This document shows, one piece after another, positions 24,012 through 63,801 of a DNA stretch of 64,000 nucleotides. Each line of letters starts with the position of its first letter. Within the stretch, counting starts at the first letter, position 1. Source of the DNA: Candidatus Sungiibacteriota bacterium. Its GTDB lineage: Bacteria; Patescibacteriota; Minisyncoccia; Sungbacterales; JACQCQ01. The position numbers were made by a program, and so were the translations under genes. The notes under the pieces were generated by a model. The model did not search any database and was not told the DNA's origin. It saw only the letters and a program-made list of their open reading frames with translations. The stretch is taken from NCBI GenBank assembly GCA_016201505.1, contig JACQCQ010000013.1, forward strand, positions 5,285 to 69,284, read 5' to 3'.

Positions 24012-24021
24012 ACAGACAATT

Positions 24022-24306: not shown

Positions 24307-24314
24307 CGATGTGT

Positions 24315-28427: not shown

Positions 28428-28428
28428 A

Positions 28429-28653
28429 TTATTTCTTTTTTAAGAGTTTCAGAATGTCATCTTTTTGATAGCGTCTATCCTTCCTAATTCCAATACGAAT
28501 AGCTTTAAGAATCCCTTTTGTATCCCATTGGCGAAGCGTATTCGGATGACATTTCAGAACGGCGCAAGCCTCTTTAAGCGTTAGAAGTTCGGGGATACCC
28601 CTCTTCTCCTGTTTAGTCCTAGGCATTGATTCTAACTTAACATTTGCTAACAT
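28429..28653 (-). CDS. Excisionase-family/MerR-like HTH DNA-binding protein (Xis-like)
   Basis: IPELLTLKEACAVLKCHPNTLRQWDTKGILKAIRIG. Confidence 0.5.
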   Translation of the reverse strand: MLANVKLESMPRTKQEKRGIPELLTLKEACAVLKCHPNTLRQWDTKGILKAIRIGIRKDRRYQKDDILKLLKKK

Positions 28654-28682
28654 AGGCCGTAAATAGCATCATACCTTAGAAA

Positions 28683-29396: not shown

Positions 29397-29459
29397 GTCG
29401 CAAATGACTCACCCGTGAGTCATTTAGCTAAGGAATAGGCTGAAAAAGGCCTATTTTTT

Positions 29460-29642
29460 ATGCTGCCAAAAGTCGCAATCGAAGAATTTAAGAAGCTCTA
29501 TCACGCTAGATTCAAGGTTGAATTAAGCGACGAAGAAGCATCATACCGAGCCAATAACTTGGTGAATTTGTATTCCGCAGTCTATGGCCAGCCCGTCCCT
29601 GGCCGTATCCAGCCGCCCACAAAGGATTCCAAGAAATTTTAG
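29460..29642 (+). CDS. Small hypothetical protein
   Basis: ORF only; its 3' end runs into an 18-bp tandem repeat. Confidence 0.3.
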   Translation: MLPKVAIEEFKKLYHARFKVELSDEEASYRANNLVNLYSAVYGQPVPGRIQPPTKDSKKF

Positions 29643-29662
29643 GATTCCAAGAAATTTTAGGA
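29624..29662 (+). repeat. Tandem direct repeat ggattccaagaaatttta, 2 copies plus a partial third
   Basis: Seen directly. Confidence 0.6.
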
Positions 29663-29678
29663 CAACAAGTTTTAGCAT

Positions 29679-30908
29679 ATGGACACTGTTCAAATACGAA
29701 TCCGAGGACTTAACAAATTCCATGTAGCGACTTGGGCGTTGTTTAACCAGGATTTTCATCCTCGAAAGTTTGCCGAACTCTCGCGCAACGAATTGACCCA
29801 AGCGAGGAACCCAAGAGTCCCGTACTTGCGGCATTTTGTCTTGCACGGAGGAGATGGCGAGCTTTTCCGCCCGAAAGTGGAGATATTTGAATCGGCAAAC
29901 GTAGAAAAAGGCCTAACCGAATATGACCTCGTAATCACGTTCTCTATCCCCCAATTGCTTAATGAGAACAGCCTCCAAGAAATTGCTCCCAGCGATAGTT
30001 ACCGAGTTTTCGATACTCTCCGCGAACGGCTAAGCAACCTTGGAATCTCGACATTAACAGAACATATCAAGAATGGGACTGTATCGGTAGCCCATTTCTG
30101 CAAGAATATCATCCTGCCGCCGGAAATCCGATTCAGGAGTGTCTCGGCGGAACTCTCAAAAACCGACATGGGAAAAGCATACGATACGTCCGAAGAAATC
30201 ATGCAAAGAGGGACTAATAACAACGAAATCGTGCGGATACGTTGCGGCACACGGGAATGGATTTGTTATAACAAGATCGAGGACTTAAAAAACCATAAGG
30301 GCAAAGGCGCGGGGAGAAGGCGCACGCAACTTGAAAAAGACCTTTTTGCGGTTTACGCCCTTGATGGCCTAGAAGTCTTCCGATACGAGTACCGGCTCAA
30401 TAAAGCCCAAACCATAAAAAGCGAAATCAATAGCATCCTCGGAAGGCCATACCCGACGCCAATAGTGTTTAACGATTTATTTACAGAAGGACTTTGGAAA
30501 ACAGTTTTGCTTAACTCTTGGGAAAAGCTAATTATGCGTCCAGAAAACCAGCTTGCCCTCCTTGGGGGCGATGACAAGCTGGCACTATTGCATCACATAC
30601 TCCACAAGGCAGAATCGAAAGAAAGAAGTGCGCATAGCCAAAACCAAGCACTCGTAAGCTACTCACTTGCTGTAGCCATCAAAGACCACGGAGTTAAGAC
30701 GATAAGGCAAGAGCTGGCTAGAGGGTGGTCAAATAAAGCCGATGACAGGCTTACGGAGAAGCTAGAAGCAGCGGCGAGCGCAATGGAGGATTTATCTTTT
30801 TCGGATGGGTTATCTTTTATAGACCGCGAGCTTAGGCGATTTAACAGCACTACCTTGGATTCGTTTCCCAAGAAAATGGCGCTTGATAAGTCCAAAAGAA
30901 CCCTGTAA
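29679..30908 (+). CDS. Hypothetical 409-aa protein of the island; possibly an element replication/maintenance protein (unsupported guess)
   Basis: ORF only; no confident motif. Confidence 0.45.
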   Translation: MDTVQIRIRGLNKFHVATWALFNQDFHPRKFAELSRNELTQARNPRVPYLRHFVLHGGDGELFRPKVEIFESANVEKGLTEYDLVITFSIPQLLNENSLQEIAPSDSYRVFDTLRERLSNLGISTLTEHIKNGTVSVAHFCKNIILPPEIRFRSVSAELSKTDMGKAYDTSEEIMQRGTNNNEIVRIRCGTREWICYNKIEDLKNHKGKGAGRRRTQLEKDLFAVYALDGLEVFRYEYRLNKAQTIKSEINSILGRPYPTPIVFNDLFTEGLWKTVLLNSWEKLIMRPENQLALLGGDDKLALLHHILHKAESKERSAHSQNQALVSYSLAVAIKDHGVKTIRQELARGWSNKADDRLTEKLEAAASAMEDLSFSDGLSFIDRELRRFNSTTLDSFPKKMALDKSKRTL

Positions 30909-31049
30909 AATGATGATGTTGACCCGTCCAAAAGCTATCCGCCACAAAGGTATTTTTATTGGTTTTAGTGTCCCAAAAGGGGCGGTTTCAGCCGGTAGAG
31001 CTACTTCCTTTGTGGAGCAAGCGGACTGGGTCAACCTGAACCGTCCCTT

Positions 31050-32684
31050 TTGTGTTTTATGAAAGAAAATCTTAATAAAATTTCATATTTTATTTATCCC
31101 AGAAAATCTTCCGAGCAGGAAGATAGGCAGGTTGTTTCCATTGAGTCTCAAACTAGAGAACTTCAAGAAGTTGTTGTGAGAGAATCTTTGGCTGTCAAAG
31201 ACACGCTCCCCGAATCTCATTCAGCGAAATCTCCAGGCCGCCCGATTTTTAACAAAATGGTTCAAAGAATCCAGGAGGGAGAGGCAAACGGCCTCTTAGT
31301 CTGGAACGCAAGCCGTATCGCCCGTAATGCGGTTGATACAGGCCAAATTATCCATCTTCTTGATACGGGAAAGCTACTTGAGGTAAGAACCCCTAGCCAG
31401 ATATTCAGAAACACCCCAAATGATAAATTCTTACTCAATCTCTTTTGTAGCCAAGCGAAACTTGAAAATGACAATAAGGGCGTGGATGTAAAACGGGGGC
31501 TTAAAACAAAAGCGCAAATGGGTATGTATCCCTGTCACGCGACGGCAGGATATATGAACGATAAGACTGCCGAGAAGGGCTTTAAGCAATTGCATCCAGA
31601 CCCCGAACGCTTTGAGCTAGTCCGAAAGATTTTTGACCTAATCCTTACCGGAGCGTATTCGCCGATGCACGCCTTAAGAATCGCAAACGAGGATTGGAAA
31701 TTCAAAATGCCGAGCGGCAAACCTATGGGGCGCAGTACCCTGTATAACATTTTGACCCGCCCGATTTATTACGGGATGTACGAATACCCTATCGGTAGTG
31801 GGAATTGGCATCGGGGCATCCACAAGCCAATGATTACGGAAGATGAATATGACAGGATTCAAATGCTCTTAGGCAGGCAGGGTAAGCCGCGCCCTAAGAG
31901 CCACATCTTTGATTTTGCCGGAATGATGCGATGCGGAGAATGCAATGCGATGATTACGGTTGAAGAAAAATACAAACACCAAAAGAACGGAAAAATCCAT
32001 CACTATATTTATTACCATTGCACCAAGCGAAAAAATCCTAACTGCTCTCAAGGCTCAATTGAAGAAGCGGAGCTAAATAGGCAGATAAATGCGGCCATTG
32101 ATAAACTCGTTATCCCGCCCGAATTTCACGATTTTGGCATGAGGTGGTTCAGGGCGCAGAACGAGAATGAGTCATCGAGCAGAAATGCTATCCTCGCTAC
32201 CCGTCAGGAAGCCTATAAGCTCTGTATCAAGAAAATTGACGGGTATATTGATATGCGAGCGGCCAAGGAAATTACAGCAGAGCAGTATGCCCAAAGGATA
32301 GCCCCCTTGGAACGCGAGAAAGCTCAACACGAGGAGTTTTTTGCCGATATGGGTCAAAGGATAGACCAATGGATTCAAACAGCAGACGAGATGTTCACTT
32401 TTTTGGACGATGCAAAGGAAAAGTTCAAAACCGGAACCCTGGAGACAAAAAGGCAGATACTTTCGACTCTTGGTTCGAACCTCGTGATAAAAGACAAAAT
32501 ACTCACACTGGACGTGCAAAATACGCTCTTGCCAATGGAAGTCGTCTCGGAAGAGGCTAAAAAGATTTATGCACGGTTCGAACCTGTCAAAAGTGCCATA
32601 GATAAAAGGAAACTGGAGCTTGCTTACTCCAAGAGTCCACGAATGCTCCGGCGGCAGGACTCGAACCTGCGACCTGGGGATTAA
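31050..32684 (+). CDS. Large serine recombinase, paralog of 22452..24011; its 3' end overlaps tRNA-Asn in antisense
   Basis: YFIYPRKSSEQEDRQVVSIESQ catalytic region, CGECNAMITVEEK...YYHCTKRKNPNC zinc ribbon, 544 aa. Confidence 0.85.
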   Translation: MCFMKENLNKISYFIYPRKSSEQEDRQVVSIESQTRELQEVVVRESLAVKDTLPESHSAKSPGRPIFNKMVQRIQEGEANGLLVWNASRIARNAVDTGQIIHLLDTGKLLEVRTPSQIFRNTPNDKFLLNLFCSQAKLENDNKGVDVKRGLKTKAQMGMYPCHATAGYMNDKTAEKGFKQLHPDPERFELVRKIFDLILTGAYSPMHALRIANEDWKFKMPSGKPMGRSTLYNILTRPIYYGMYEYPIGSGNWHRGIHKPMITEDEYDRIQMLLGRQGKPRPKSHIFDFAGMMRCGECNAMITVEEKYKHQKNGKIHHYIYYHCTKRKNPNCSQGSIEEAELNRQINAAIDKLVIPPEFHDFGMRWFRAQNENESSSRNAILATRQEAYKLCIKKIDGYIDMRAAKEITAEQYAQRIAPLEREKAQHEEFFADMGQRIDQWIQTADEMFTFLDDAKEKFKTGTLETKRQILSTLGSNLVIKDKILTLDVQNTLLPMEVVSEEAKKIYARFEPVKSAIDKRKLELAYSKSPRMLRRQDSNLRPGD

Positions 32685-32717
32685 CAGTCCCTCGCTCTAC
32701 CACTGAGCTACGCCGGA
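32646..32717 (-). tRNA. tRNA-Asn (anticodon GTT)
   Basis: Manual fold: acceptor TCCGGCG/CGCCGGA, D arm GCTCAGTGGTAGAGC, anticodon loop CTGTTAA, T arm GCAGGTTCGAGTCCTGC, discriminator G. Confidence 0.8.
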
Positions 32718-32959
32718 ATATATTTCTTTATAAATTCTCGGCCTCGGAAGCTTTTCAATTGCTTTTCACGCCTTAAAGCCTCCCGTCGAGTAGTTAGATG
32801 TTCAGAGTATATAAGATCCCAATGGCCGTCAAATCTTGAAGTAAAGCTATTTTTAAAAGTTTTTTCCTCATGCAAAGTAAGCCTCTTTTCTAAGTTTTCT
32901 GTTTGACCAACATAAATCTTATCAAACTTTTTATTGTAGAGTGCGTAAACGAAGTACAT
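32708..32959 (-). CDS. GIY-YIG nuclease-superfamily small protein
   Basis: MYFVYALYNKKFDKIYVGQTENLEKRLTLHEE shows the GIY...YIG, R and E motifs. Confidence 0.75.
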   Translation of the reverse strand: MYFVYALYNKKFDKIYVGQTENLEKRLTLHEEKTFKNSFTSRFDGHWDLIYSEHLTTRREALRREKQLKSFRGREFIKKYIPA

Positions 32960-48920: not shown

Positions 48921-50360
48921 TTAAAAGTCTTTGAGACCATTTAACTTGGCGCGGGTTTTAACGCCGACCGACCCGTAGCCCGTGTCGCCTTTTTTGGCGA
49001 TGCCGTATCGCGCCTGGAACCGAATCACCGCGGCTTGAGTCGCCGGGCCGTAATAACCGGAAACTGTTTTTTCCGGATAGAGTGTCGGGTCCTGGCGCAA
49101 GAGCTGCTGCAGGGCCGTTACTTGCTTATTGGATGAGCCCTTTGAAAGATAGAGCGTGAAGGGAATCGTATGGACGACTTTGATTGAACCCTGACTGGCA
49201 GTCCCCGCTCCGGCAGCTCCTGAAGCCTGGCTGGTAGTTGAACTTACAGCGGAAGAGGGGCTCGATCCCGGCGGTAAAATTGTAAGCACAATAGTTTTTG
49301 ACTTCAGGGGGTCATAGGTTCCGGTCAGACTTTCTGGGAGAAGCATAAAAGAGACAGTTTGCGGGATACCGGTGTGATTGGAAAACGCGATTGTGCTGCT
49401 TCCGGTAACCGAAAGGGGCTGGGGGAGAGCAAGCCCGACGCAATGAAGAGCGATGACCGGATCCCAGAGACTGCTGGTCGCAGTGACGGCGTCACTGCAG
49501 GGCAGCTGGATATTCGTGCCCGAGGCGTTTCTCGCATCCCAAGAAAAATAAATCGGCTCACCGGAGAGAGCGATAGTTTTGGAACTGGTAAATGAGAAAA
49601 TAGATTCTGACTGCGGCGGCAGAGCGCCGCCGACTGTGAGTGAAAGCGAGATGCCGTGCGTGCCGTCATAGACGCCGGGTACAATGGCCGGCAAAACACG
49701 AACGCCAAGAGTGGCAGAGGAGTAGGACGCATTGGAAAATGAAATCGTAACCGAGCCCGAACCGGCGAGATCCGAGGTATAGGCCAGGCCGTTGCAGGGC
49801 AGGGCGTTGGTGACTGAAGGACTTTGCGAGAAAACCTGAATACCCGATACGCAATCAAACTGGAGATTGGCGCCTCCAATATCAATCCCCGTCCAGGTGA
49901 GCGTCAGCGCCGTTCCCGGAATCGGATATTGGGTTGAGGCGGAAAAATTACTAATCGGATGCGGTATGGGGCCGACTGTAATGGTTGTACTGACGCCTCC
50001 CGCGTCATAATCGGCGCCGCTCGCGTCCTTTGGAGTCACACGGACAGTTACGGATTGTGTGGCCCCTGTGGCGTTAATGATTTGAAACCCGGCCGAGTCT
50101 GAAGCATAGGAACTTACAGATTGTTTCGTATTGCAGGGGAAGGCCGCGCCCGCGTCGGTCTTTAGACTGATCCCCTGATTACAGAAAAAATAAAGATTAT
50201 GTCCGCTGCCGTTGGTGATAGCCCATGACAGGGCCGTGAACTGGCCGTAGCTGATTGAGGAAGGAGTCGCAGAAAAAGACGTGACTGCCGGATTATCGGC
50301 GCTCGCCACCGCCGGCAGGACACCAAAGATGGTAAACAGAAGCAAAAGATAAAATTTCTT
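48921..50360 (-). CDS. Secreted protein with repeated Ig-like regions and a C-terminal peptidoglycan-binding domain
   Basis: Signal peptide MKKFYLLLLFTIFGVLPAVASA, starting at the internal Met of the ORF that runs to 50420. C-terminal QVTALQQLL...YYGPATQAAVIRFQ (PG_binding_1-like). Confidence 0.6.
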   Translation of the reverse strand, partial: KKFYLLLLFTIFGVLPAVASADNPAVTSFSATPSSISYGQFTALSWAITNGSGHNLYFFCNQGISLKTDAGAAFPCNTKQSVSSYASDSAGFQIINATGATQSVTVRVTPKDASGADYDAGGVSTTITVGPIPHPISNFSASTQYPIPGTALTLTWTGIDIGGANLQFDCVSGIQVFSQSPSVTNALPCNGLAYTSDLAGSGSVTISFSNASYSSATLGVRVLPAIVPGVYDGTHGISLSLTVGGALPPQSESIFSFTSSKTIALSGEPIYFSWDARNASGTNIQLPCSDAVTATSSLWDPVIALHCVGLALPQPLSVTGSSTIAFSNHTGIPQTVSFMLLPESLTGTYDPLKSKTIVLTILPPGSSPSSAVSSTTSQASGAAGAGTASQGSIKVVHTIPFTLYLSKGSSNKQVTALQQLLRQDPTLYPEKTVSGYYGPATQAAVIRFQARYGIAKKGDTGYGSVGVKTRAKLNGLKDF

Positions 50361-50411
50361 CATACTATTATTATATTGATGGTACCATATCAGCCAATCA
50401 TCAAATTTATG

Positions 50412-51059
50412 TATAAGCATGTCAAAACAATAACGGCAGCAGGATTAATGGTTCTCTTCGCAGGAGTTACTGCCTTTATTTTGACAAAGTACCCGACTTT
50501 TTCAACCTCGCCCTCGAGCCGCTCCGCGCAAGGACTGGCGGGATCAAACGCTCTACCTAAAGGGTTACTGCCGCCGATCGATAATGCCCTTTTACGCATC
50601 ACCAAAAAATCATTTGGTGTCTATGTTGCGCCGGCTAACTCGCCGGTAAGCCCCGAGCGATTTAAGGGATACCACACCGGAGTCGATTTTGAAACCTATC
50701 CCGCAGAAAAAGATTTAGATGTTTCAATATACGCCGCCTGCACCGGGCTGCTCCGTCTAAAAAAATGGGCCGCGGGATATGGCGGCGTTTTGCGGGAAGA
50801 ATGCAGGCTCGATAATCAGGCTGTTACGATTGTGTACGGACACGTCAAACTTTCAAGCGTGACAAGCGATGTTGGGAGAACCTTAACCGCGGGAGAAAAA
50901 ATCGCGATTCTTGGCGCGGGATACAGCAGCGAAACTGACGGCGAGCGAAAACATCTGCATTTTGGCATTCACCGAGGTACTGCAATTGATATTCGCGGCT
51001 ACGTACAAAACGAAACTGAATTAAAAAATTGGCTTGATCCGCAAATATTTTTTAGATAA
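50412..51059 (+). CDS. M23-family metallopeptidase, membrane-anchored
   Basis: GYHTGVDF (HxxxD) and HLHFGIH (HxH) motifs. ORF track starts at 50376; an internal Met after it is the more likely start. Confidence 0.75.
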   Translation, partial: YKHVKTITAAGLMVLFAGVTAFILTKYPTFSTSPSSRSAQGLAGSNALPKGLLPPIDNALLRITKKSFGVYVAPANSPVSPERFKGYHTGVDFETYPAEKDLDVSIYAACTGLLRLKKWAAGYGGVLREECRLDNQAVTIVYGHVKLSSVTSDVGRTLTAGEKIAILGAGYSSETDGERKHLHFGIHRGTAIDIRGYVQNETELKNWLDPQIFFR

Positions 51060-52649: not shown

Positions 52650-53804
52650 TTATGCGGTGATTTCAAGCGCGGCCAATTCAAGCGGCAATCCCGGAACCGG
52701 CGAACGGCGGTATTTTTGCGCAATATCCGAGAGGACCATTAAAATTCGTTTTAAGTGAATGCCGTCCGTAGCGCTGATGACCACATCCAGCGCCTTCATT
52801 TCTTCATCCAAAAGCTCATCGGCGACTGCGGCTTTTAATGCCGGATCGATTTTAGCGAGTATCCCGTTCCGCGCAAGACGCACCAGCGACTTTAAAATCT
52901 GGTGCGCGTCATAACCGGCTTCAACCGCGTTTTTAATCAACTCGATGGCCTTTTTGGCCTCGCGGGCCGCTAGTGCTTGATACATTGATACTATGATTTC
53001 TCTTCTGGGGAGACCTAAAATTTCCTCAACCAGCTCTTTGGTGACGGTACGCTCCTCGATGGCTAAAATTTTTCCCAAAATGCTTTCGGCGTCACGGAGT
53101 GACCCTTCGGCGGAAATGGCGACGAGTCTTGCGGCATCCGAATCCAGTTTTACTTTTTCCTTGGCCGCGATGGATGCGAGTCGTTCTGAAATGACAGCCA
53201 CCGACGGCCGCTTGAATTGATAGTGCTGGGTGCGCGAGATAATCGTCGCGGGCACTTTGTCAATTTCGGTTGTAGCCAAGACAAAAATGGCGTGCTCCGG
53301 CGGCTCCTCGAGCGTTTTCAAAAGCGCATTAAAAGCCGGCGGGGTCAGCATATGCACCTCGTCAATAATGTAGGTTTTCTTGCCGCCTTCGGCCGGAACG
53401 TATCGCACCGCCTCCCTTAACTCGCGGATTTCATCGATGCCGCGATTGGAGGCCGCGTCGATTTCTATAATGTCAAACGACGCGCCGTCATTATAGCGGA
53501 TGCAGGAATCGCAGGTGTTACAAGGGATTTCCAGCCCGCCTTCGCCAAGGCTGCGGCGGGTGCTTAATTTGTCAGCAGAATTTACCATGCGGGACAAATT
53601 GGCACAATTAACGGCTTTGGCAATCAGTCGCGCGACCGTCGTTTTCCCCACGCCATGCGGACCGGAAAATAAATAGGCGTGCGCCACGCGCCCAGTCTCG
53701 ACGGCATTTAAAATCGCGCGCACCGTCGGCTCCTGGCCCACGACTTCAAGAAAACTGGTCGGGCGGTATTTTCGATAGAGTACGAGGTGATCTTGCCGGT
53801 TCAT
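52650..53804 (-). CDS. dnaX: DNA polymerase III subunit gamma/tau
   Basis: YRKYRPTSFLEVVGQEPTV, FSGPHGVGKTT, IDEVHML, and a Cys cluster CNTCDSC. Confidence 0.85.
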   Translation of the reverse strand: MNRQDHLVLYRKYRPTSFLEVVGQEPTVRAILNAVETGRVAHAYLFSGPHGVGKTTVARLIAKAVNCANLSRMVNSADKLSTRRSLGEGGLEIPCNTCDSCIRYNDGASFDIIEIDAASNRGIDEIRELREAVRYVPAEGGKKTYIIDEVHMLTPPAFNALLKTLEEPPEHAIFVLATTEIDKVPATIISRTQHYQFKRPSVAVISERLASIAAKEKVKLDSDAARLVAISAEGSLRDAESILGKILAIEERTVTKELVEEILGLPRREIIVSMYQALAAREAKKAIELIKNAVEAGYDAHQILKSLVRLARNGILAKIDPALKAAVADELLDEEMKALDVVISATDGIHLKRILMVLSDIAQKYRRSPVPGLPLELAALEITA

Positions 53805-53807: not shown

Positions 53808-54419
53808 CTACATCTTCTCACGAAATACCACAAATTTGTAGCCCACAAAATTCCAAACAAAAGAGAATGCGATGGCCATTATTTTAGCAACATTGGCCCA
53901 TTGCGCGGCGGAGACGCCGCCGGGCGGCGCAATATAGCCGGTAAAGAGACCGACAATCAAGCTTGAAATAATGGCCGCCACCACGCTGACCGTCAAGAAC
54001 TCAAAAAACTGTGTGCGGCTCCTTCGCGCTTTACCCTCAAAAACCCATTTTTTATTCCATATGTAACTATTCACAACTGCCACTGTAAAGGAAACGGCGT
54101 TAATCAGGGCAAGCTGCAAACCCTTGTCATAGCCAGTGGCATAAATCAAAACATTATAGACGCCGAGGTCAAGCGCCGTATTCAAAACACCGATGAGCCC
54201 GAATTTAGCAATCTGCCAAATGATAGGCACCATTCGGCCGATGAGACTGGCGACAAAAACGCCCGCGGCCGAGAGAATTGGCAACAAAATCAAAAATGCC
54301 AGATACGGCGAAGGAATTTTAGCGATTAAATTTGTATTCGACAAAATGGGCAGCAAAAGCGCCCCGATGACGACGCCGATTACAAGACCGATAACAATAT
54401 CCCGCCAGACAATACGCAT
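53808..54419 (-). CDS. GtrA-family membrane protein with an N-terminal extension
   Basis: FGLIGVLNTALDLGVYNVL...VWNFVGYKFVVF. Confidence 0.6.
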   Translation of the reverse strand: MRIVWRDIVIGLVIGVVIGALLLPILSNTNLIAKIPSPYLAFLILLPILSAAGVFVASLIGRMVPIIWQIAKFGLIGVLNTALDLGVYNVLIYATGYDKGLQLALINAVSFTVAVVNSYIWNKKWVFEGKARRSRTQFFEFLTVSVVAAIISSLIVGLFTGYIAPPGGVSAAQWANVAKIMAIAFSFVWNFVGYKFVVFREKM

Positions 54420-54804: not shown

Positions 54805-55560
54805 TTACTTCCCAAAGGGCACGTGCTTCTTTGAACCTTCTGCGATTACCCGATGCCGCACCAGATCATACATTTCTCGGCGTGAATCAGGACGTCCCGC
54901 GGACTCTTCGGCGATTTTTTTTATTTGCTCATCAATCACATCCCGGGCCTTTTTGAAATTTTCCTTGTATTGGGGAAATTTCTCGACTTCATACACCAGA
55001 CTCCGATAGAGACCGGCTAAAATGTTAATCTTGACCGCCAGCTGGTCCTCAACCCAATCGCCAATTTTTCCCTTCTTGCCATTTTCCAGCCAGGCTTTTT
55101 CTGCCTTCTTCCATTCGGCTTCGGCTTTGGGCGCATAGAGCAGCGTAACATGAGGAATTTGTTTCTGGATGACTTTACCCTCTTTATCGTGAACATCTAC
55201 CAGCGGACGTTTGCCGGTAAAATCGATGGATGCATCAAGGTCGCGCATGCGCTTTAACTTGGAAAACTCCTCTTCAGGCGAATGAGTATCGCTGACATCG
55301 ATTGCCATCCAGGCTCCGTTCCCCCAGCGCACGGCAAAATCAAATCCGTGCTGATGATAGGGTTTTCCCAGGTCGTCGTTTCTCTCGGCCTGCCTAATTT
55401 CTTTCACCCCCTCAAAGTGCTCCATCATAAATTCGGCTGTCATCTGCTCCAGGGCGAGACTAAAGTCTTCCGCATACCCGGGGGAATCTTCAAGGGGTTC
55501 GATGCGGGGGTTAATTTCTCTGGCCGCTTGTTCCTCCGGAGACCATTCTACGGATTTCAT
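54805..55560 (-). CDS. Hypothetical protein, first gene upstream of the ATPase
   Basis: ORF, acidic, no motif. Confidence 0.45.
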   Translation of the reverse strand: MKSVEWSPEEQAAREINPRIEPLEDSPGYAEDFSLALEQMTAEFMMEHFEGVKEIRQAERNDDLGKPYHQHGFDFAVRWGNGAWMAIDVSDTHSPEEEFSKLKRMRDLDASIDFTGKRPLVDVHDKEGKVIQKQIPHVTLLYAPKAEAEWKKAEKAWLENGKKGKIGDWVEDQLAVKINILAGLYRSLVYEVEKFPQYKENFKKARDVIDEQIKKIAEESAGRPDSRREMYDLVRHRVIAEGSKKHVPFGK

Positions 55561-57971
55561 ATTTTTGCGTGACGCGCCATAATTTCGGCTTCAACGGCCT
55601 CACGCGACCGGCCGTATTTTGCGCGATTAATTTCTTTAATATGCTCGGCTCGTTCGCGGTCCGGCTTGGGTGCGGGATAGGTGCGCATGGAAAACGGGCG
55701 CGAAGTCTTGCCGGCGATAAGCAGCCTCACGTAGGCCTTGAAATTATCCAGTGAGATCAAATCGCGGCGCGAAAATTCAGGCGCGAATTGGTGTTCCATA
55801 AACTCGCCGTCTTCGGTGCCAATGCGAAATGAGGCCATCGAGCCGACGTTGCCGAATACCGCCTTTTTAATCTCCTCTTCCAATTGACCAATGTACTGAT
55901 GCGTCATGGTCAGGTTTAAACGATACTTTCTGGCTTCCGATAAAATCGTGGCGATGGATCTCGTGGTTACGTTATGGAACTCGTCAATGTACAGGAAAAA
56001 ATCGGGACGCGTTTCTTCAGAGGCGTTGGTCCGCGACAGCGCGGCAATCAAGAGCTTCCCGACTAAAATTAACCCGAGGAGAGAGGAATTTAACTCGCCG
56101 AGCCGGCCCTTGGATAAATTAATCAGCAGAATCTTTTTTTGATCCATCACGTCGCGGAAATTAAATGACGAGGTCTGCTGGACAATAATCGGCCGCATGA
56201 TGTCATTGGAAAGAAAGCCGTCGAACTTGGATGAAATGTAGGGCACCATATTGGCGAGCGAGGATTCGCCGCCGGCTTTTTCCGCTACCTCGGTCCAAAA
56301 GGATTTAACCAGAATATTTTGTGATTTCTCCAATTTCATTTGGCGGAACTCCTTATCGGCCAGCACGCGCCGGATTTCAAGCAAGGTATTGCCTGATGCC
56401 GGATCGTCCATCACGAGGAGCGCCGCATTCCGGAAATACTGCTCAAACTGCGGGCCGCCGGCAATCGACATATTAAAAAGTTTTTCAAAAATTTGCAGCA
56501 GTTCATTGACGAGCAACGTTTTCTGTTCGGGGAAGCGCGCGTCATACTCGAGCATATTAAGCCCCATCGGCCGCGCGATATCGCCCGGGTCGAAATAAAT
56601 CACGTCATCGATCCGTTCATTCGGGATAAAGCCTAAGGCATACTCGGGCAACTCCCCATGCGGGTCAATCACGCAGACGCCCTCGCCGGCTAAAATGTCT
56701 TGGACAATCAGGTTTTTTAAAAACACCGATTTTCCGGTTCCGGTCTGGCCCACGATATAAAAGTGGCGCCTGCGATCTTCGCGGCCAAATCGGATTTCGG
56801 TTTCAACGCCGCGAAAAAGATTATAGCCGAGCAATGTGCCGGTCTTTGGCAAATCAGACGGCGGCGAGGCCTCCTTGGCTTTTACAATTTCAAGCCCCGG
56901 CACATCCAGCGGCGTATTCGGAAAATGGAAAATACTGGTTAATTCAGCGGCAGACAATACCATGAGATGCGCTTGGCTAAAAAGGCGGAACGAATACTCA
57001 AAAATTTCCTCTTTTTGGTGAGACCGTTTGGCTCGGATAAAACGCAGGCTGTTTAGATTGGGGCTCGCGAGCTGGGTAAATGACTGCTCGAGGCTTTGCA
57101 AAATAGTCTCGGCGCGCTCATCAGTCGGCGCGGAGGCGACAATGCGGAGATTCGTTTCAAAAAGAGGCTTACCGGCTTTTTCTTCGAGAATCCGAGCCTT
57201 GTTTTCATCGAGCGGAGAACGAACCACTGGCAACTCCGCTTCTTTTTTGGGGTCCTTTTTCGAGCCCACCAACGCCTCCTTAAGCATACCTCCAACCCCC
57301 GGCGGCTTAGCCTTGCCTTGGTAGTAATTATCCGCCTGTGAAAGCAAAGCCTTTCTCCAGCGTTTGGCAGCCGGGCGAAAAAGGACTTGGATCGCCGCGC
57401 CCTCCGAGACTTCATCCAATTTCGTAAATACCGAGGCGGTTGTTTTTAAGGGATCGGTCTCCAATTCGCGGTAAGTCTTAATCGGCAAGACCTTGTCTTC
57501 GGCAAGTCGTGCATAGGCGATGGCCGAATGACCCGCGGGGGAAAAGATATTATAGTCGGGAGCTTCTGCGACATCTGCCGTCGGGTAATAGGCATGGATT
57601 AGTTTTTCCGCCGTATCTTTAAATTTTTTCGGCACGGCCGCATAAAATGAAAGTTCGGCGTCTTTGGCCGGCACTGTCAACTCAAAGGCGATCCAGGGAC
57701 GTGCAGAAAACCAACCGCGACTCTTCAGATTCGCGAAATTGGCATAGAGCTGTTCCATCACGCCAATTTGCTCACGGATGCGCTCCTGCGGCAGATTCTC
57801 TTCTTTTATTTCCGCCAGCGGTAAGCGCACCAGGAGGAGCGCTAAATTGAGCCCTCGTTCAAGCCTTTTTTTCCGTTTCAACCAGGATACCCCGATGATG
57901 AAAAAACCCGCTGAAAGAAGAAGCAGCAGGATGACGGCAAAAAGCGTGAGCGGAAATAACGAATCATTCAT
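55557..57971 (-). CDS. Membrane-anchored P-loop ATPase of the VirB4/VirD4(TraG)/HerA-FtsK (DUF87-like) superfamily; candidate type IV secretion / DNA translocation ATPase
   Basis: N-terminal TM helix, Walker A YIVGQTGTGKS, Walker B FFLYIDEFH, sensor TMTHQ. Confidence 0.65.
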   Translation of the reverse strand: MNDSLFPLTLFAVILLLLLSAGFFIIGVSWLKRKKRLERGLNLALLLVRLPLAEIKEENLPQERIREQIGVMEQLYANFANLKSRGWFSARPWIAFELTVPAKDAELSFYAAVPKKFKDTAEKLIHAYYPTADVAEAPDYNIFSPAGHSAIAYARLAEDKVLPIKTYRELETDPLKTTASVFTKLDEVSEGAAIQVLFRPAAKRWRKALLSQADNYYQGKAKPPGVGGMLKEALVGSKKDPKKEAELPVVRSPLDENKARILEEKAGKPLFETNLRIVASAPTDERAETILQSLEQSFTQLASPNLNSLRFIRAKRSHQKEEIFEYSFRLFSQAHLMVLSAAELTSIFHFPNTPLDVPGLEIVKAKEASPPSDLPKTGTLLGYNLFRGVETEIRFGREDRRRHFYIVGQTGTGKSVFLKNLIVQDILAGEGVCVIDPHGELPEYALGFIPNERIDDVIYFDPGDIARPMGLNMLEYDARFPEQKTLLVNELLQIFEKLFNMSIAGGPQFEQYFRNAALLVMDDPASGNTLLEIRRVLADKEFRQMKLEKSQNILVKSFWTEVAEKAGGESSLANMVPYISSKFDGFLSNDIMRPIIVQQTSSFNFRDVMDQKKILLINLSKGRLGELNSSLLGLILVGKLLIAALSRTNASEETRPDFFLYIDEFHNVTTRSIATILSEARKYRLNLTMTHQYIGQLEEEIKKAVFGNVGSMASFRIGTEDGEFMEHQFAPEFSRRDLISLDNFKAYVRLLIAGKTSRPFSMRTYPAPKPDRERAEHIKEINRAKYGRSREAVEAEIMARHAKI

Positions 57972-57981
57972 AGAAATAAAT

Positions 57982-58368
57982 CTAAAGGGCGCGAATTTTA
58001 CCCGATGCCACTAACTTATCGAAATAATGATCGGACAGAGCGTCGTGTAAAGAATCGACGAGATACGGCGATTCGGCCGCGGCCTTTTTTACTGCAGACA
58101 TAATTCCCCGACGCAAGGCGATATCAACCAGAATTTTCACAGCTTGATCACTGGCGTCATCATCGGCTTTTTTTATAACCAGGGGCTTGGCGTCTGGGAT
58201 TGGTGCTTGCGGCTGATGCCTGACCGTTTCGCGAAAGGCCTCACGGAATATTTCTTTTCCTTCTCTCTCTTCGCCGGATCCTTCTAAAAGACGCTTTTTT
58301 TCTTCATAGCGGCGAATAACCTCCGCTTCGTCTAATTCCATCCGGGGTTCACCTCCATGTTCAGCCAT
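57982..58368 (-). CDS. Hypothetical protein
   Basis: ORF in an operon arrangement with the ATPase. Confidence 0.4.
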   Translation of the reverse strand: MAEHGGEPRMELDEAEVIRRYEEKKRLLEGSGEEREGKEIFREAFRETVRHQPQAPIPDAKPLVIKKADDDASDQAVKILVDIALRRGIMSAVKKAAAESPYLVDSLHDALSDHYFDKLVASGKIRAL

Positions 58369-58377
58369 ACGAAAGTC

Positions 58378-58698
58378 TTAACTAGATTTTTCCGCTCTTT
58401 CGATCAATTGGGCTTTCACTTTTGCGATCTCTCGGACGAGAAGGTCAGAAAAGGAAATTCCCCGCTGTTCGAGCCAGCCCATAGCTTCGACCTCATTTTG
58501 GTTAAGCACCCGGTCAAACTCGCTCCGCTCTGCTTTTGATAATTTTTCGCCGATATAGACCATGAGCCGCGCCTCAACGAGATCCGCCATCGATTCGAGC
58601 AATGCCTCTTTTTTTTCAAGCGACAGAGATTCGAGCCCGAGCTCTTCGATAATATTTCCCTGAAGCGCCTGACGAAGAGTTTTTTGATCAATGGTCAT
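58378..58698 (-). CDS. Hypothetical protein
   Basis: ORF; 4-bp overlap with the upstream giant gene. Confidence 0.4.
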   Translation of the reverse strand: MTIDQKTLRQALQGNIIEELGLESLSLEKKEALLESMADLVEARLMVYIGEKLSKAERSEFDRVLNQNEVEAMGWLEQRGISFSDLLVREIAKVKAQLIERAEKSS

Positions 58699-61600
58699 AT
58701 CCCAGGAGAAAGTTTAGAAAAATAATGTTTCATAAAATCATTGACAGAAAATTGTCCCGCCGTTTTTCGCTCATCGGCGTCGAGAGACTCAATGGTTTTC
58801 GCAATCAGATTCCGCAGTTTAACGTAGCGCATGGTATCGGCATGATTGGGCCGCACCCCCTCCGGCCAGGGCCATTGCTCGACTTCCTTCAATGGAATAA
58901 ATCTCTTTTTTAAGATATCTTCGACCTTCATACCCTTCACCAGCCGATAGTATCGTTCCGGCATATGGGCCGTCTCGAGCGCCCATTGATCTGCCATTTG
59001 ATGCGCAACTTCTACCGGAGAACCAATCACATTATGCGGTAGGGCTGTCTCGACGATCACTTGACTGTCGGCATTTACGTGAACTGCCTCCGAGATCTCG
59101 CCGAGCACAGACCGATCCGATATCTCCCCTATCGCCCCATTCCGCAATACTTTATCAAAATCGAGACCCTCGCGAAAACTGGCGACAGGAATTTTCGCGC
59201 GAACGCGAACCCCGCTGTCCAATTCCCAGGCGCCATGGCCATTTTGCACGGCATATCGATCCCAGTTTACGTTTTTCGAACCGGCGTAATCTTTCAAATT
59301 TTCAGAAAGTCCCGCAATTTTTTCGGGCGTATTGAATCGTCCTTTCATTTTAGAAAGCACGTCTTCAATTGTCTGATTCTTAAATTCAATCGTATCGCCG
59401 GGATGATAGACGCTTTGGGCTTTGCCCTCACTGACTAACTCTTTGGCTGTTTCTTCCCAAAGTTTTGTCTCGGCATAGACTTTTTCCGCGGGTGAGAGCG
59501 AATCAAAATCCTTATGCGAATCAAAATAGAGCGCCAGCGCCTTTCGTGCTTCATGGATTGGCCCTTCGCCGGATTTTACCGGAATAGAAATCGAGTCTTT
59601 GGCGGACTCAATTGTGCCGCCGGGGACATTTTTCGCCAGCGCAGGTTCTTTGACTGATGCGGCATTGGGATAGTCAAATGGTTCTTGAGGCGTACCAGCG
59701 AGAGACTCTCTAATAAGATTCGGCTCATCTGAAGCGAGCGGATAGTCTGGATAAAATTCACCGCTCGTTTTGGGTGCTACTGGTATAGGGATTGACGCCT
59801 CTTTGAAGCCGAAAAAAACTTTTATGCCAGCCCAGCCGGCCTTCATCTTCGAATCTAAGTCATAGATATGCTTTTCAAAAATAAGATGGCGCAGGGCCGC
59901 GAGCCCGACAAATGTTCCGGCACCCACACCTGCCGCCATGCCGATGCGTTTTAGTCTCTCTCGATTTTCTTCTTTTGCTTTGGCCTCTTTGGTGAGATGG
60001 CCCTCACGAGTCAAGGATCCTGCGGCTTCATGAAAATTTCCTTGAAAGCCCATGGCAATCGCAATCATTTGCTCGCGTTTTTCTTTCAATCTCTGAAAAG
60101 TCGGATCAATCCCCTCCCAGGAATTCGACATGCGAGCCAGAACCGCAAGATGCGTCATGCGCTCTTCCAGTTCCGGATAATTTAAATTCTCCAGCGTTTC
60201 ACCGCTTAGTTCAGTCAGTTTTTTCCCGCGTCTGCCTTCAAGCCAGCGATAGGTGCCGAACGCGGCGCCAATCGAACCAAGAGCTCGCCGCGCTCCCATA
60301 AAAGCCGTACCCAGAACCGGTGTAAGCGTCGTGGCGCCTAATCCGACGAGAGATCCAAGAATAATATTCCGCAGACTTTTTTTAACAAACCCTTCACGTT
60401 TCAAACCGAAATACGTTCCGATGGTCGATTCCCTAAACCGATCCCAAGTTTTTCCCCACGCTGAAACAAAGTCCGGCCCGACGGATTCGGTTCGGGCTTT
60501 CATCAGTGCGATCTCCTCTGCGGCAAATTTTAACGCATCATTACCCGCCCATTCTGCACGGAGTGTATTGTAACTAGTGAGCAGCTTCTCGTAATCCGCC
60601 GTGACGTGCGCTCGCGCCGCATCGATCGGACCGATATCCAAATATTTTTCATGCTCTTTCAAAGCTTCGCGCGCCGCATCTAATTTTTCTTTAAGGGCCG
60701 TCTCTTTTCCGGGACCCAGCATCTCGGCCGTAGGCGCCGCTTCCGACGCGCCGCCGTAGGTTTCAGCCAAGCGTTCGCCATAAAGCTTATCCATCGCCTT
60801 GGCTCGCTCTTTGGCCTCTGTCTCAGCTAAATCTTCAAGTGACTTGGCCTGTTCGGCCACATCGGGCGGCCTGCCTTTCGGCGCTTTTTCCGCCAGCTCT
60901 GTTTCGAATTCTTTAATCTTCCGAGCTTCATCTTCGGGCCCGGTTTTTTCCAGAATGGCTTTGGCCTGATCTTCTAAAAATGCTTCTAAATCGGCCTCCG
61001 CGGTACTTCGCGTTCCGGCCGATACCGGCTCGTCCCTTCTCGCCGTTCGAGCTCGTTCTGCCTCAACCTCTCTCGCAATCAAAGTTGCAGAGTTAGCCGG
61101 ATGATCTTCCAGAAATTGCGGGCGCAGACCAGCTATGGTTTCCCGTGTTCTGTCCCGCCGCTCGTCTTTTGCCTGCTTGCGACGTTCAGCTTTTAAAGAA
61201 CGTTCGGTTTCGCCTGTCGGTTCCTTTCCAGCCTCTCTAGTTGCCGTAGGCTTTTCCGCTTCTTCTGCGAGCGATCCCCAGTAGGCATTCATTGATTGGT
61301 CGGAAATGCCGGCTTCCCGTAGTAGATCGTCTTCAAAAGCTTTAACTTCGCCAGATGATTTTAAATTCATTCGTTCGGTTATTTCTCGAATTTGAAGCGC
61401 CGCGGGAGACCGTAAAATGCGGCGCACGTCATCAGCGCTCATCTCGCCCCCGCGTTTGCCGGCGTTTACCCGTGCTTCTTGGAGAGCCACCATTAAACTA
61501 GTACGCAACTGCGGCAGTACGCCGCCCTGCCGAACTATAGCTTCTAGAGCCCGGCCAAGGAGCTTCTGGTCTTCGGGAGGTAATTGGTCATAAAATGCTG

Positions 61601-62579
61601 TTGCTTTTTGACGAGTAATTTCTACTTGTTCTGGCGTCTTTTTATCTTCGACGGACTTTTCGGGAAGTATTCCACTTTGTCTTTCGACTTCGCGAGCACG
61701 AGCTTCAAGCAAGCCATTTATGGCTGACTCCGGAACTCCGAGTTTTTTTAGTATCTCAATTTCTGTAGCCTGAATCACTCCAGAAGATTTTTTTGCTAAT
61801 TTCTCGCCAACCTCTCGAATGTCACGCGACCAACGAGACCGCGTAATCATTCGCAAGTCTTTGGCATCTAACTGGCTTATTTCTTTGCCTTGATTTTTAA
61901 GATTCTTATGAAGTGCACTTGCCAGAGCACCTCCGAGTTGTTCGCTCAAGGTTTTTCCCCTATCGGCAAGCCGTAAAATCGGACCTATCCGATTTTGATC
62001 CTCCGGCGAAAGGCTTTCAAAATAATCACTTGCCTGCTCGGCAGTATAATCTAATGGTCCCCTGGCTTTTTCAGCTGCTTCACGAGCCTCTTTTCTTACC
62101 TTCGCTTCTTCTCGCCTGCGATCTTTTTCTGCGTCTTCTTTTTGAACTTGTTCCGCTAATTTTTTTGTTCGTTCTTTCCCCGATAATTCCTTGCCCCAAT
62201 CGGGGGCTTGGGGTTCATCATCTTTTTTGGTGGTGTCATCGACTGTCGGTTTTTTTACTTTCTGTCTTTTTTCTTTCGCGCGCTTCTTTTTTTCCGCCGC
62301 TTCGGCTTTCTTCCGGTCAAATGCTGTATTTTCTGCTTTCGCGTCGTCAATCAAAGTTGACTCGGCGCCCACCAGATTCCAGTCGCCAAGCCCTGCTTCA
62401 GGTTTAGCTTTAATCTTGCCTTTATGCTTCCTGATCTCGGCATTCCGGGATCGAGAAAGTTCCTCCTCGGTCGGGAGAGTCATTTCTGCCATTTTGCGCT
62501 TTAATTTGGCTAATTCACTTGGCGGCAAACCTCCAGGCAATTGCTCTTTGCCCGGCTCGCCATTTTTTTGTTCAGCCAC
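58695..62579 (-). CDS. Giant (1294 aa) K/E-rich coiled-coil protein with central TM segments
   Basis: N-terminal ~650 aa are extremely charged. Gly-rich TM helices at LGSLVGLGATTLTPVLGTAFMGA and MAAGVGAGTFVGLAAL. Confidence 0.55.
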   Translation of the reverse strand: MAEQKNGEPGKEQLPGGLPPSELAKLKRKMAEMTLPTEEELSRSRNAEIRKHKGKIKAKPEAGLGDWNLVGAESTLIDDAKAENTAFDRKKAEAAEKKKRAKEKRQKVKKPTVDDTTKKDDEPQAPDWGKELSGKERTKKLAEQVQKEDAEKDRRREEAKVRKEAREAAEKARGPLDYTAEQASDYFESLSPEDQNRIGPILRLADRGKTLSEQLGGALASALHKNLKNQGKEISQLDAKDLRMITRSRWSRDIREVGEKLAKKSSGVIQATEIEILKKLGVPESAINGLLEARAREVERQSGILPEKSVEDKKTPEQVEITRQKATAFYDQLPPEDQKLLGRALEAIVRQGGVLPQLRTSLMVALQEARVNAGKRGGEMSADDVRRILRSPAALQIREITERMNLKSSGEVKAFEDDLLREAGISDQSMNAYWGSLAEEAEKPTATREAGKEPTGETERSLKAERRKQAKDERRDRTRETIAGLRPQFLEDHPANSATLIAREVEAERARTARRDEPVSAGTRSTAEADLEAFLEDQAKAILEKTGPEDEARKIKEFETELAEKAPKGRPPDVAEQAKSLEDLAETEAKERAKAMDKLYGERLAETYGGASEAAPTAEMLGPGKETALKEKLDAAREALKEHEKYLDIGPIDAARAHVTADYEKLLTSYNTLRAEWAGNDALKFAAEEIALMKARTESVGPDFVSAWGKTWDRFRESTIGTYFGLKREGFVKKSLRNIILGSLVGLGATTLTPVLGTAFMGARRALGSIGAAFGTYRWLEGRRGKKLTELSGETLENLNYPELEERMTHLAVLARMSNSWEGIDPTFQRLKEKREQMIAIAMGFQGNFHEAAGSLTREGHLTKEAKAKEENRERLKRIGMAAGVGAGTFVGLAALRHLIFEKHIYDLDSKMKAGWAGIKVFFGFKEASIPIPVAPKTSGEFYPDYPLASDEPNLIRESLAGTPQEPFDYPNAASVKEPALAKNVPGGTIESAKDSISIPVKSGEGPIHEARKALALYFDSHKDFDSLSPAEKVYAETKLWEETAKELVSEGKAQSVYHPGDTIEFKNQTIEDVLSKMKGRFNTPEKIAGLSENLKDYAGSKNVNWDRYAVQNGHGAWELDSGVRVRAKIPVASFREGLDFDKVLRNGAIGEISDRSVLGEISEAVHVNADSQVIVETALPHNVIGSPVEVAHQMADQWALETAHMPERYYRLVKGMKVEDILKKRFIPLKEVEQWPWPEGVRPNHADTMRYVKLRNLIAKTIESLDADERKTAGQFSVNDFMKHYFSKLSPGI

Positions 62580-62642: not shown

Positions 62643-62678
62643 CCAGCCAGGATTTCGGGCCTCCGAAATCCTGGCTGG
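62643..62678 (-). terminator. Perfect 16-bp-stem hairpin ccagccaggatttcgg-gcct-ccgaaatcctggctgg followed (minus strand) by GGGGTTTTATTAT
   Basis: Seen directly, downstream of the minus-strand ORF ending at 62703. Confidence 0.55.
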
Positions 62679-63399: not shown

Positions 63400-63561
63400 G
63401 CTAGCGGCGAGGAACGCGGACCAGCGCATCGCAGCCCGTTTGGGCCTTGCCGCAGTGGCCCTGGTCATCGCACCGCTTGCACGGGCAGTCGCAGACCCGA
63501 CTGGGTAGCTTCGTCGCGTCGCGGCTACCAAACGTCATGGCGTTAATCTCTTTCTTCGCCA
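63400..63561 (-). CDS. Small Cys-rich protein (53 aa; CDCPCKRC...HCGKAQTGC)
   Basis: Hand-translated short ORF below the ORF-track cutoff; eight Cys residues. Confidence 0.3.
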
Positions 63562-63585
63562 TCTCATCTCCTTCTCATCTCCTTA

Positions 63586-63801
63586 TTATCGGATTGGCGT
63601 TCCTTCGACACACCAGCAGGAATCTTGCGATACCCCGCAGTGCGTCGGACTCCGGTCGCAGTGAAGGCAGCGGCAGATTGGAAACTCCGAGTCTGCCTCG
63701 GCCACGTATGACTCCGTGTCTTTGATGTCATCCCCCACGGTATTCCTCCACGTGTAAATTTCTAGCAGCATTTTATCACAAAATAAAATAAAGTCAAGCA
63801 T
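63586..63801 (-). CDS. Small Cys-rich protein (71 aa; CRCLHCDRSPTHCGVSQDSCWC)
   Basis: ORF track; Cys cluster. Confidence 0.35.
   Translation of the reverse strand: MLDFILFCDKMLLEIYTWRNTVGDDIKDTESYVAEADSEFPICRCLHCDRSPTHCGVSQDSCWCVEGTPIR

Follow-up and report, generated by a model that had tools for sequence, protein, structure and literature searches.

A Predicted Hybrid VirB4/VirD4-like ATPase and Its Small Partner Protein at a Conserved Chromosomal Locus of Patescibacteria

Introduction

The Patescibacteria account for a large part of bacterial diversity, and most of their conserved genes have no assigned role. VirD4-like ATPases of unexplained function are near-universal in this phylum and unlinked from its essential type IV secretion system (T4SS) (PMC12102498): 5,713 VirD4-like homologues were counted in 2,918 of 3,035 Patescibacteria genomes, only 148 of them near virB4, and the authors of that survey state that exaptation cannot be ruled out (PMC12102498). 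The patescibacterial VirB4 cluster sits near dnaA/dnaN (PMC12102498), and the T4SS cluster of the Saccharibacteria has no recognisable coupling protein or relaxase (PMC10633639). This paper discusses an ATPase of 804 amino acids (aa) encoded elsewhere on the chromosome, in a five-gene operon at 54805-62579 of a 64,000-nucleotide stretch of contig JACQCQ010000013.1 (assembly GCA_016201505.1), a Candidatus Sungbacteria metagenome-assembled genome; the whole stretch is called the window below. The ATPase very probably belongs to the orphan type IV coupling protein (T4CP) homologues of Patescibacteria described by Quinonero-Coronel et al. (2025, PMC12102498), with which it shares a positive VirD4 profile, a chromosomal location far from any virB4 and near-universal presence in the phylum. 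That survey, however, gives counts and locations only and describes no VirB4-like N-terminal domain, no split or fused partner and no association with DUF5663 or with a giant protein, the features that are the subject of the present analysis.

A similar gene arrangement is that of S. epibionticum ML1, for which transposon sequencing (Tn-seq) was reported by Wang et al. (2023). There, a 139-aa hypothetical protein, SEML1_0141, is encoded 12 bp upstream of the 1019-aa T4CP-like ATPase SEML1_0142, and both genes are essential (PMC10633639, Tables S1/S2); the genome also has another T4CP-like paralogue of 921 aa, SEML1_0293, which is called non-essential (PMC10633639). In addition, a 767-aa hypothetical protein, SEML1_0161, is encoded directly upstream of two DUF5663 genes (PMC10633639), and the Tn-seq calls are essential for SEML1_0161 and SEML1_0162 and growth defect for SEML1_0163 (PMC10633639). 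These essential pairs appear in Tables S1/S2 and are not discussed in the main text of that paper (PMC10633639). SEML1_0141/0142 and SEML1_0161-0163 have the same gene grammar as the window operon, a likeness of arrangement, and they differ from it in that the two groups lie ~20 kb apart. The non-essential SEML1_0293 could equally be a candidate orthologue of the window ATPase.

Full-length relatives of the ATPase are also found in Bacillus phages, namely gp156 of phage G (24% identity over 93% of the query; Foldseek against BFVD, E 3e-45), gp27.4 of SPO1 and orf201 of 0305phi8-36. They have been read as coupling ATPases without transmembrane helices that form part of a "DNA translocation operon" beside a MobC-like relaxase (Pathria et al. 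2012, PMC3357382). The phage proteins resemble the window ATPase in having a non-transmembrane N-terminal domain followed by a VirD4-like ATPase, but their genes adjoin the MobC-like relaxase and small phage proteins, and no homologue of the other four operon proteins was found among the genes that flank them. In the stretches examined of the lytic phages G and SPO1, the only T4SS annotation is that of G gp155, "type IV secretory pathway protein; VirB-like". The gp155 gene (L089 4294-5943, 549 aa) lies directly upstream of gp156 and its product matches the model of the window ATPase (BFVD, E 9e-16); phage G therefore has a tandem pair of related ATPases.

The class of the ATPase and its orphan status are published, and DUF8128 and DUF5663 have been delimited by Pfam. 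Not found in the literature searched, in which neither DUF8128 nor DUF5663 is mentioned, are the VirB4-like identity of DUF8128, the split or fused partner, the alternation between transmembrane helix and fusion, and the four-part module of ATPase, small partner, DUF5663 protein and giant protein. The locus is tentatively interpreted here as an autonomous ATPase module and not as a T4SS.

Domain Architecture of the ATPase

The residues of both Walker motifs of the ATPase (Table 1) are invariant in an alignment of 69 homologues, and so are EARKYR (residues 679-684) and HQ..GQ (691-696), which follow Walker B; judged by its motifs, the enzyme is predicted to be catalytically intact. The Pfam family T4SS-DNA_transf matches residues 402-701 with 39.0 bits (cut-off 20.1) and TrwB_AAD_bind matches with 30 bits (cut-off 20.5), while the NCBIfam equivalog and subfamily models of TraD/TraG give 12-41 bits against cut-offs of 366-686. 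NCBIfam VirB4 models match the P-loop only: VirB4_plasma with 24 bits (cut-off 590), CD1110 with 19 (325) and TraC-F-type with 13 (567). Sequence searches of the PDB, with the ATPase alone or with the profile of 69 sequences, returned only TrwB, DotL and, weakly, HerA, around the P-loop, and TrwK, which is in the PDB, was not matched by that profile. DUF8128 (PF26449) stands in the precomputed annotation of the ATPase, of every homologue and of L001-L007; the local Pfam scan did not return it.

Other identities were tried and rejected. The FtsK/SpoIIIE family (PF01580) reaches 17.9 bits against a cut-off of 24 and covers residues 402-423 only, and the alpha and gamma domains of FtsK were not found in the Pfam scan; the HerA model NF040819 gives 13.8 bits against 970, with DUF87 on 41 residues near the P-loop; and matches to terminases and AAA_10 are below threshold and confined to the P-loop. 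The original prediction, which was made from the DNA letters alone and called the protein a VirB4/VirD4-like membrane ATPase, had named an FtsK/SpoIIIE or phage packaging origin with unrelated neighbours as the finding that would speak against it. What was found instead is P-loop-only matches and neighbours linked by synteny. The transmembrane anchor, the Walker A sequence GQTGTGKS and the Walker B motif that it listed were all located.

The structure was predicted with AlphaFold2 (pLDDT 84.2), and a separate model was made of the N-terminal domain (pLDDT 83.9). The full-length model begins with a long N-terminal helix, which is followed by an alpha/beta domain and a RecA-like domain; its fourth part is an all-alpha insertion. 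When the whole model was compared with the PDB by Foldseek, TrwK/VirB4 of R388 ranked first (E 1.5e-14), and TrwB-deltaN70 superposed over ~445 aligned columns with the C-terminal half (E 6e-12, TMt 0.66-0.69); HerA, DotL and Cag-beta ranked below these two, and FtsK was also among the matches. The N-terminal domain model gave 14 PDB hits, all of them TrwK (E 1.1e-6 to 3.6e-4, TMq 0.41-0.48), and its non-TrwK hits were unrelated (E>=8e-3). Because the C-terminal half superposes on TrwB while the N-terminal domain matches only VirB4/TrwK, the modelled ATPase is a hybrid of a VirB4-type N-terminal domain and a VirD4-type motor, and neither a canonical coupling protein nor a VirB4. Consequently, the earlier label holds for each half in its own way, VirD4/TrwB-like by sequence and fold in the C-terminal half and VirB4-like by fold in the N-terminal domain.

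The ATPase fails one defining trait of each family, namely the two-helix membrane domain of the T4CPs and the sequence signature of VirB4. With T4CPs (VirD4/TrwB/TraD/TraG) it shares the RecA-like nucleotide-binding domain (NBD), the all-alpha domain between Walker A and Walker B, scores above the Pfam thresholds and, in the window protein, an N-terminal membrane anchor. However, T4CPs have two membrane helices before the NBD, whereas the window ATPase has one and its fused orthologues, described below, have none; a VirB4-like domain of ~350 aa stands between anchor and ATPase domain; the scores lie far below the NCBIfam equivalog and subfamily cut-offs (41 vs 366); and no relaxase or T4SS genes adjoin the gene, while its obligate 128-aa partner is unknown in T4CPs. 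With VirB4/TrwK/TraC it shares a length of ~800 aa and the order of an N-terminal alpha/beta domain and a C-terminal ATPase, and VirB4 is both the best full-length structural match and the sole match for the N-terminal domain. Unlike a VirB4, it matches VirB4 profiles at the P-loop only (19-24 bits vs 325-590), and no VirB3/PrgI, VirB6 or VirB8 gene was found in the operon or among the scanned window proteins. The small upstream protein, which is sometimes fused to the ATPase, is formally analogous to VirB3 and to VirB3-VirB4 fusions, but it has no transmembrane helix and is unrelated to VirB3/PrgI. HerA, which has a HAS-barrel as its N-terminal domain, differs in that the N-terminal domain of the window protein matches the VirB4 fold and not that of HerA.

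The 128-aa Partner Protein

The gene directly upstream of the ATPase encodes a 128-aa protein without a Pfam or PDB match. A word-indexed search with it returned no homologue besides itself, and its family was found by sequence profiles instead, which were searched, using domain envelopes, across 87 related loci labelled Sungbacteria, Giovannoni-, Moranii-, Yanofsky-, Niyogi-, Nomura-, Taylor- and Campbell-bacteria and Paceibacterota. In 39 loci the homologue has a gene of its own directly upstream of the ATPase (gap -19 to +256 bp), and in 2 more it lies elsewhere in the locus, still separate from the ATPase, while in 39 others it forms the N-terminal ~135 residues of an ATPase of 902-969 aa. 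Loci without a scored homologue are mostly cut off at a contig end. In the fusions, the 128-aa-like domain joins the first strand of the N-terminal domain directly, in place of the transmembrane helix, and this helix is present in 41/41 split-type and 0/39 fused-type orthologues. The gene arrangement thus exceeds chance, and the pair is kept in all informative related loci. Judged from these loci, the 128-aa protein is an obligate partner of the ATPase, and the natural fusions, as Rosetta-stone evidence, predict a physical complex of the two. A relationship of the 128-aa family to DUF5663 was ruled out (hhalign probability 0.1).

Operon Structure and Chromosomal Context

Five minus-strand open reading frames (ORFs) fill the interval and encode, in order of transcription, proteins of 1294, 106, 128, 804 and 251 aa, with successive spacings of -4, +9, +10 and -4 bp; the gene calls at NCBI are identical (HY220_03955 to HY220_03975). 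Coordinates, strands and spacings all reproduce the single operon of co-oriented, closely spaced genes that had been proposed from the sequence. The operon has its own 5' boundary, because a terminator-like hairpin ends the preceding 223-aa gene. Downstream, a gap of ~385 bp is followed by gtrA (53808-54419, minus strand) and dnaX (52650-53804). The GC content of the operon resembles that of its flanks.

Word-indexed homologues of the ATPase number >7,400, at 53-70% identity, across candidate phyla, and among representatives of 50%-identity clusters 21,197 match at E<=1e-3 and 5,312 at E<=1e-30. In all fetched loci the ATPase gene lies among housekeeping genes. Split-type lineages have PMT_2 glycosyltransferases, ATPase, gtrA and dnaX in that order, whereas fused-type lineages have secY and adk upstream of the ATPase and ndk and RNase J downstream. 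The split-type ATPase thus occupies a conserved neighbourhood of cell-envelope glycosylation genes, and by its gtrA and dnaX neighbours the operon has a fixed place on the chromosome and does not form a mobile or host-interaction island. A GtrA-family membrane protein is encoded after the ATPase in 20/87 loci, and PMT_2 glycosyltransferases precede the ATPase in many.

The Pfam scan of the window covered all ORFs from 280 aa upwards, the neighbours of the operon and most of the shorter ORFs elsewhere. No VirB4, VirB6, pilin, relaxase or integrase family was found among these proteins, and the gene tables of seven related loci (L001-L007) hold no relaxase, VirB4, VirB6 or pilin family. The three small operon proteins are not pilins, because they have no hydrophobic segment, and no pilin or VirB2-like protein was found among the other operon proteins or the rest of the scanned window proteins; outside the operon, none of the latter has a match to a T4SS family. 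These results agree with the original prediction that the composition does not match a canonical T4SS. The synteny in related genomes, which it had proposed to examine, proved informative as well: the 128-aa/ATPase pair is kept, and DUF5663 and a large charged protein recur beside the ATPase.

Table 1. Window coordinates of the operon genes, of their predicted domains and motifs and of the upstream boundary.
Feature	Position	Strand	Remarks
Intrinsic-terminator-like hairpin	62643..62678	-	16-bp stem, 10 G-C pairs, T-run; closes upstream 223-aa gene
Giant protein, 1294 aa (HY220_03975)	58695..62579	-	GTG start; hyper-charged N-terminus, Gly/Ala-rich hydrophobic segments, C-terminal domain
Giant protein, tandem duplication in N-terminal region	61239..62039	-	residues 181-303 (61671-62039) vs 325-447 (61239-61607), 32% identity, E 4e-19
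Giant protein, hydrophobic Gly-rich segment 1	60294..60365	-	residues 739-762, IILGSLVGLGATTLTPVLGTAFMG; candidate transmembrane helix
Giant protein, hydrophobic Gly/Ala-rich segment 2	59877..59948	-	residues 878-901; candidate transmembrane helix
Giant protein, conserved C-terminal domain (~330 aa)	58719..59711	-	residues ~957-1287; invariant GEGPIHEARKA at residue 1004
106-aa acidic helical protein, Pfam DUF5663	58378..58698	-	start overlaps stop of giant gene by 4 bp
128-aa ATPase partner	57982..58368	-	variable N-terminus, conserved C-terminal helical domain
128-aa protein, conserved C-terminal helical domain (~55 aa)	57985-58149	-	invariant D105 and H108, consensus LLDxFHDxLV
804-aa ATPase (HY220_03960)	55557..57971	-	transmembrane helix, DUF8128, VirD4/TrwB-like NBD with all-alpha insertion
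ATPase, N-terminal transmembrane helix	57879..57950	-	residues 8-31, followed by basic KRKKR
ATPase, N-terminal alpha/beta domain (DUF8128)	56787..57848	-	residues ~42-395; predicted fold like VirB4/TrwK N-terminal domain
ATPase, Walker A GQTGTGKS	56727..56750	-	residues 408-415
ATPase, all-alpha insertion between Walker A and Walker B	56184..56528	-	residues ~482-596; stands where TrwB has its all-alpha domain
ATPase, Walker B LYIDEFHN	55971..55994	-	residues 660-667
251-aa acidic protein	54805..55560	-	start overlaps stop of ATPase gene by 4 bp

The DUF5663, Giant and 251-aa Proteins

The 106-aa protein matches PF18908 (DUF5663) with 24.3 bits against a cut-off of 23.7 (E 4.9e-5), and syntenic genes in L003, L004, L006 and L090 carry this family in their precomputed annotation. 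In the window, L003, L004 and L006 the DUF5663 gene comes after the giant gene. A DUF5663 gene lies <=3 kb from the ATPase in 14/87 loci, and in the window and 11/13 distinct DUF5663 loci the gene just before it encodes a protein of 638-1439 aa with 24-43% charged residues, most of these proteins having central hydrophobic segments; the proteins encoded at this place in L013 and L044 are charged too, but smaller (231-303 aa). Three gene orders occur: giant, DUF5663, small partner and ATPase; ATPase, giant and DUF5663, an order that is found with a 4-bp overlap; and ATPase, giant, DUF5663 and small partner. By sequence, the DUF5663 association is a genuine family match, and that of the giant positional and compositional. 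In L033 (10333-14132) and L044 (10281-13835), the ATPase gene is followed by DUF5663 and small-partner genes, and these directly by a gene for a UvrD helicase of ~1000 aa with a PD-(D/E)XK nuclease domain (AddA-like), an adjacency that could hint at a connection with DNA or be a coincidence.

For the giant protein, sequence searches of Pfam, NCBIfam, PHROG and the PDB found no family. Of its residues 1-700, 39% are K, R, D or E, but this region is not pure low complexity because it contains a tandem duplication, each ~120-aa copy of which opens with the motif (Y/F)(F/Y)(E/D)xLxPEDQ. The two Gly/Ala-rich segments are only moderately hydrophobic, and their positions are kept in three homologues. 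Of the earlier description of the giant, the hyper-charged N-terminus stands, while its Gly-rich membrane helices are reduced to two candidate, moderately hydrophobic segments. The conserved part of the protein is residues ~623-1287 only, at 28-34% identity to homologues from two Sungbacteria loci (L003 and L006) and to a metagenomic protein (P0121). A PDB sequence search with the C-terminal domain found nothing. Homology beyond Sungbacteria is unproven, because the giant was missed by a profile of the analogous large proteins that other lineages encode, and a homologue search with its C-terminal half returned one protein. Among the large proteins beside ATPases, similarity is detectable in subsets only, just upstream of the hydrophobic segment.

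The 251-aa gene is conserved only in close Sungbacteria relatives, and its product has no family match in Pfam or NCBIfam and none in a PDB sequence search. The universally conserved part of the operon is the 128-aa gene and the ATPase only, the giant sequence being conserved only within Sungbacteria. The partner proteins are acidic (isoelectric point (pI) 4.9-5.7) and have no DNA-binding domain.

Possible Functions of the Locus

The reading that is preferred here, with a confidence that stops somewhat short of even, is that the locus is a chromosomally fixed, autonomous ATPase module of Patescibacteria and not a T4SS. Its motor would belong to the VirB4/VirD4 branch of the FtsK-HerA ATPases, presumably as a hexamer, and would work in complex with the 128-aa protein, tethered in the window lineage to the cytoplasmic membrane by the single N-terminal helix. 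The giant, with a putative central hydrophobic hairpin, and the DUF5663 protein would form an accessory pair that either serves the motor as a scaffold or adaptor in the membrane or is possibly its substrate. The activity would be the ATP-driven threading or remodelling of a polymer at the membrane, be it DNA or an unfolded or extended protein, and the motor would act largely alone, presumably apart from the VirB4-based T4SS encoded near the replication origin. Several points weigh against this picture. Fused orthologues without a transmembrane helix weaken essential membrane tethering, and the VirB4 match of the N-terminal domain is only moderate (TM 0.41-0.48, 8% identity). The link of the giant and DUF5663 to the ATPase is genomic only and is found in 14/87 loci, and the conservation of the giant is positional and compositional, since no homology to the large proteins outside Sungbacteria is detectable. 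In addition, the dichotomy between split genes with the helix and fused genes without it may go back to a single ancestral event. Moreover, the ATPase may have a role with the distant T4SS, because its T4CP-like all-alpha insertion would suit a substrate receptor and linkage to virB4 is often missing for T4CP genes.

A stronger form of this last point is that the patescibacterial VirB4-type T4SS has its missing T4CP in this ATPase, which would feed it the substrates, perhaps the giant among them, that it delivers to host cells. The VirD4/TrwB-like NBD and all-alpha domain, by sequence and by fold, and the membrane anchor in the window genome are in line with such a role, as is the observation that T4SS clusters are without a T4CP while T4CP homologues occur in 96% of genomes (PMC12102498, PMC10633639) and T4CP genes commonly lie apart from virB4 (PMC12102498). 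We nevertheless regard it as rather doubtful and prefer the autonomous module, because the N-terminus is not that of a T4CP, a VirB4-like domain standing in place of the two-helix membrane domain; because half of the sampled orthologues have no transmembrane helix; because the ATPase has conserved partners of its own, which match no T4SS component, and no relaxase was found; because sequence conservation is very high; and because relatives occur in lytic phages whose flanks show only gp155 "VirB-like" as a T4SS-like annotation. Furthermore, the Saccharibacteria need their T4SS but can do without one of their T4CP homologues (PMC10633639, PMC12102498). For the transfer of DNA or protein to hosts, which the original prediction linked with such modules, the analysis gave evidence neither for nor against.

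It has also been considered that the ATPase is an FtsK/HerA-type DNA translocase acting on its own or incoming DNA in segregation, repair or uptake, and that its proximity to dnaX reflects function. It is a member of the FtsK-HerA superfamily with HerA and FtsK among its structural matches, the phage relatives have been placed in a DNA translocation operon with a MobC-like relaxase (PMC3357382), the module abuts the UvrD/PD-(D/E)XK helicase-nuclease in L033 and L044, and the order ATPase-gtrA-dnaX is conserved. However, the partner proteins are acidic and without a DNA-binding domain, the operon contains no nuclease or relaxase, and the proximity to dnaX is common to unrelated genes (HAD hydrolase, GtrA) and absent in fused-type lineages, so that such a translocase is unlikely. 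As a replacement of FtsK the ATPase is ruled out, because the Saccharibacteria keep a complete, bona fide and essential FtsK, SEML1_0096 (PMC10633639). Far less probable again is an origin as mobile-element remnant or cargo, prophage, or anti-phage defence with a HerA/FtsK-like ATPase. The phrog_5156 family of PHROG matches the ATPase full-length (E 2.5e-84), mad8 of PADLOC matches its core (E 9e-13), HerA matches weakly, and the window also contains a defence and recombinase island (~17-32.7 kb). The PADLOC matches, however, cover the generic ATPase core only, no integrase, relaxase or phage structural gene was found nearby, and near-universal presence with 53-70% identity is unlike patchy defence or mobile genes. 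A mobile element, a prophage and a defence island are accordingly rejected on the conserved housekeeping synteny across many candidate phyla and on the composition of the operon, whose GC is like that of its flanks.

A wider proposal extends the autonomous module: the ATPase, the 128-aa subunit with its FHD motif, DUF5663 and the giant would be an unrecognised, T4SS-independent machine across Patescibacteria, its motor an evolutionary intermediate between VirB4 and VirD4, and its counterparts SEML1_0141/0142 and SEML1_0161/0162 essential for epibiotic growth. Taken as a whole, this is doubtful. The autonomous module itself would give the orphan ATPases a defined setting, in which the motor is joined by an obligate small subunit, by DUF5663 and by a giant membrane protein, together with a structural reading of DUF8128 as VirB4-like, and the split/fused pair predicts a direct protein-protein contact. 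Should the essential Saccharibacteria genes prove orthologous, the only member of the phylum that is genetically tractable would allow direct tests of the module. In addition, the hybrid domain make-up predicted here would bear on the divergence of VirB4 and VirD4.

Other Features of the Window

A low-GC island extends over ~17000-32720 of the window (GC 0.37-0.43 against ~0.48 in the flanks) and terminates at a tRNA-Asn gene (32645-32717). It encodes two large serine recombinases (22452-24011 and 31050-32684, both on the plus strand), an EcoRI-type adenine methyltransferase (20433-21647), a GmrSD/HNH endonuclease (19262-20431), a RelA_SpoT-domain protein (18164-19222) and a type I/IIG restriction-modification pair (25262-28427), and it looks like an integrated defence island. 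On the minus strand, 48921-50420 encodes a 499-aa protein with a hydrophobic N-terminal segment, Ser/Thr-rich repeats recognised by eye and a C-terminal PG_binding_1 domain, probably a surface protein anchored to the cell wall. Two small Cys-rich ORFs of 53 and 71 aa with CxC and CxxC spacing, at 63401-63562 and 63586-63801 on the minus strand, lie upstream of the 223-aa gene in front of the operon.

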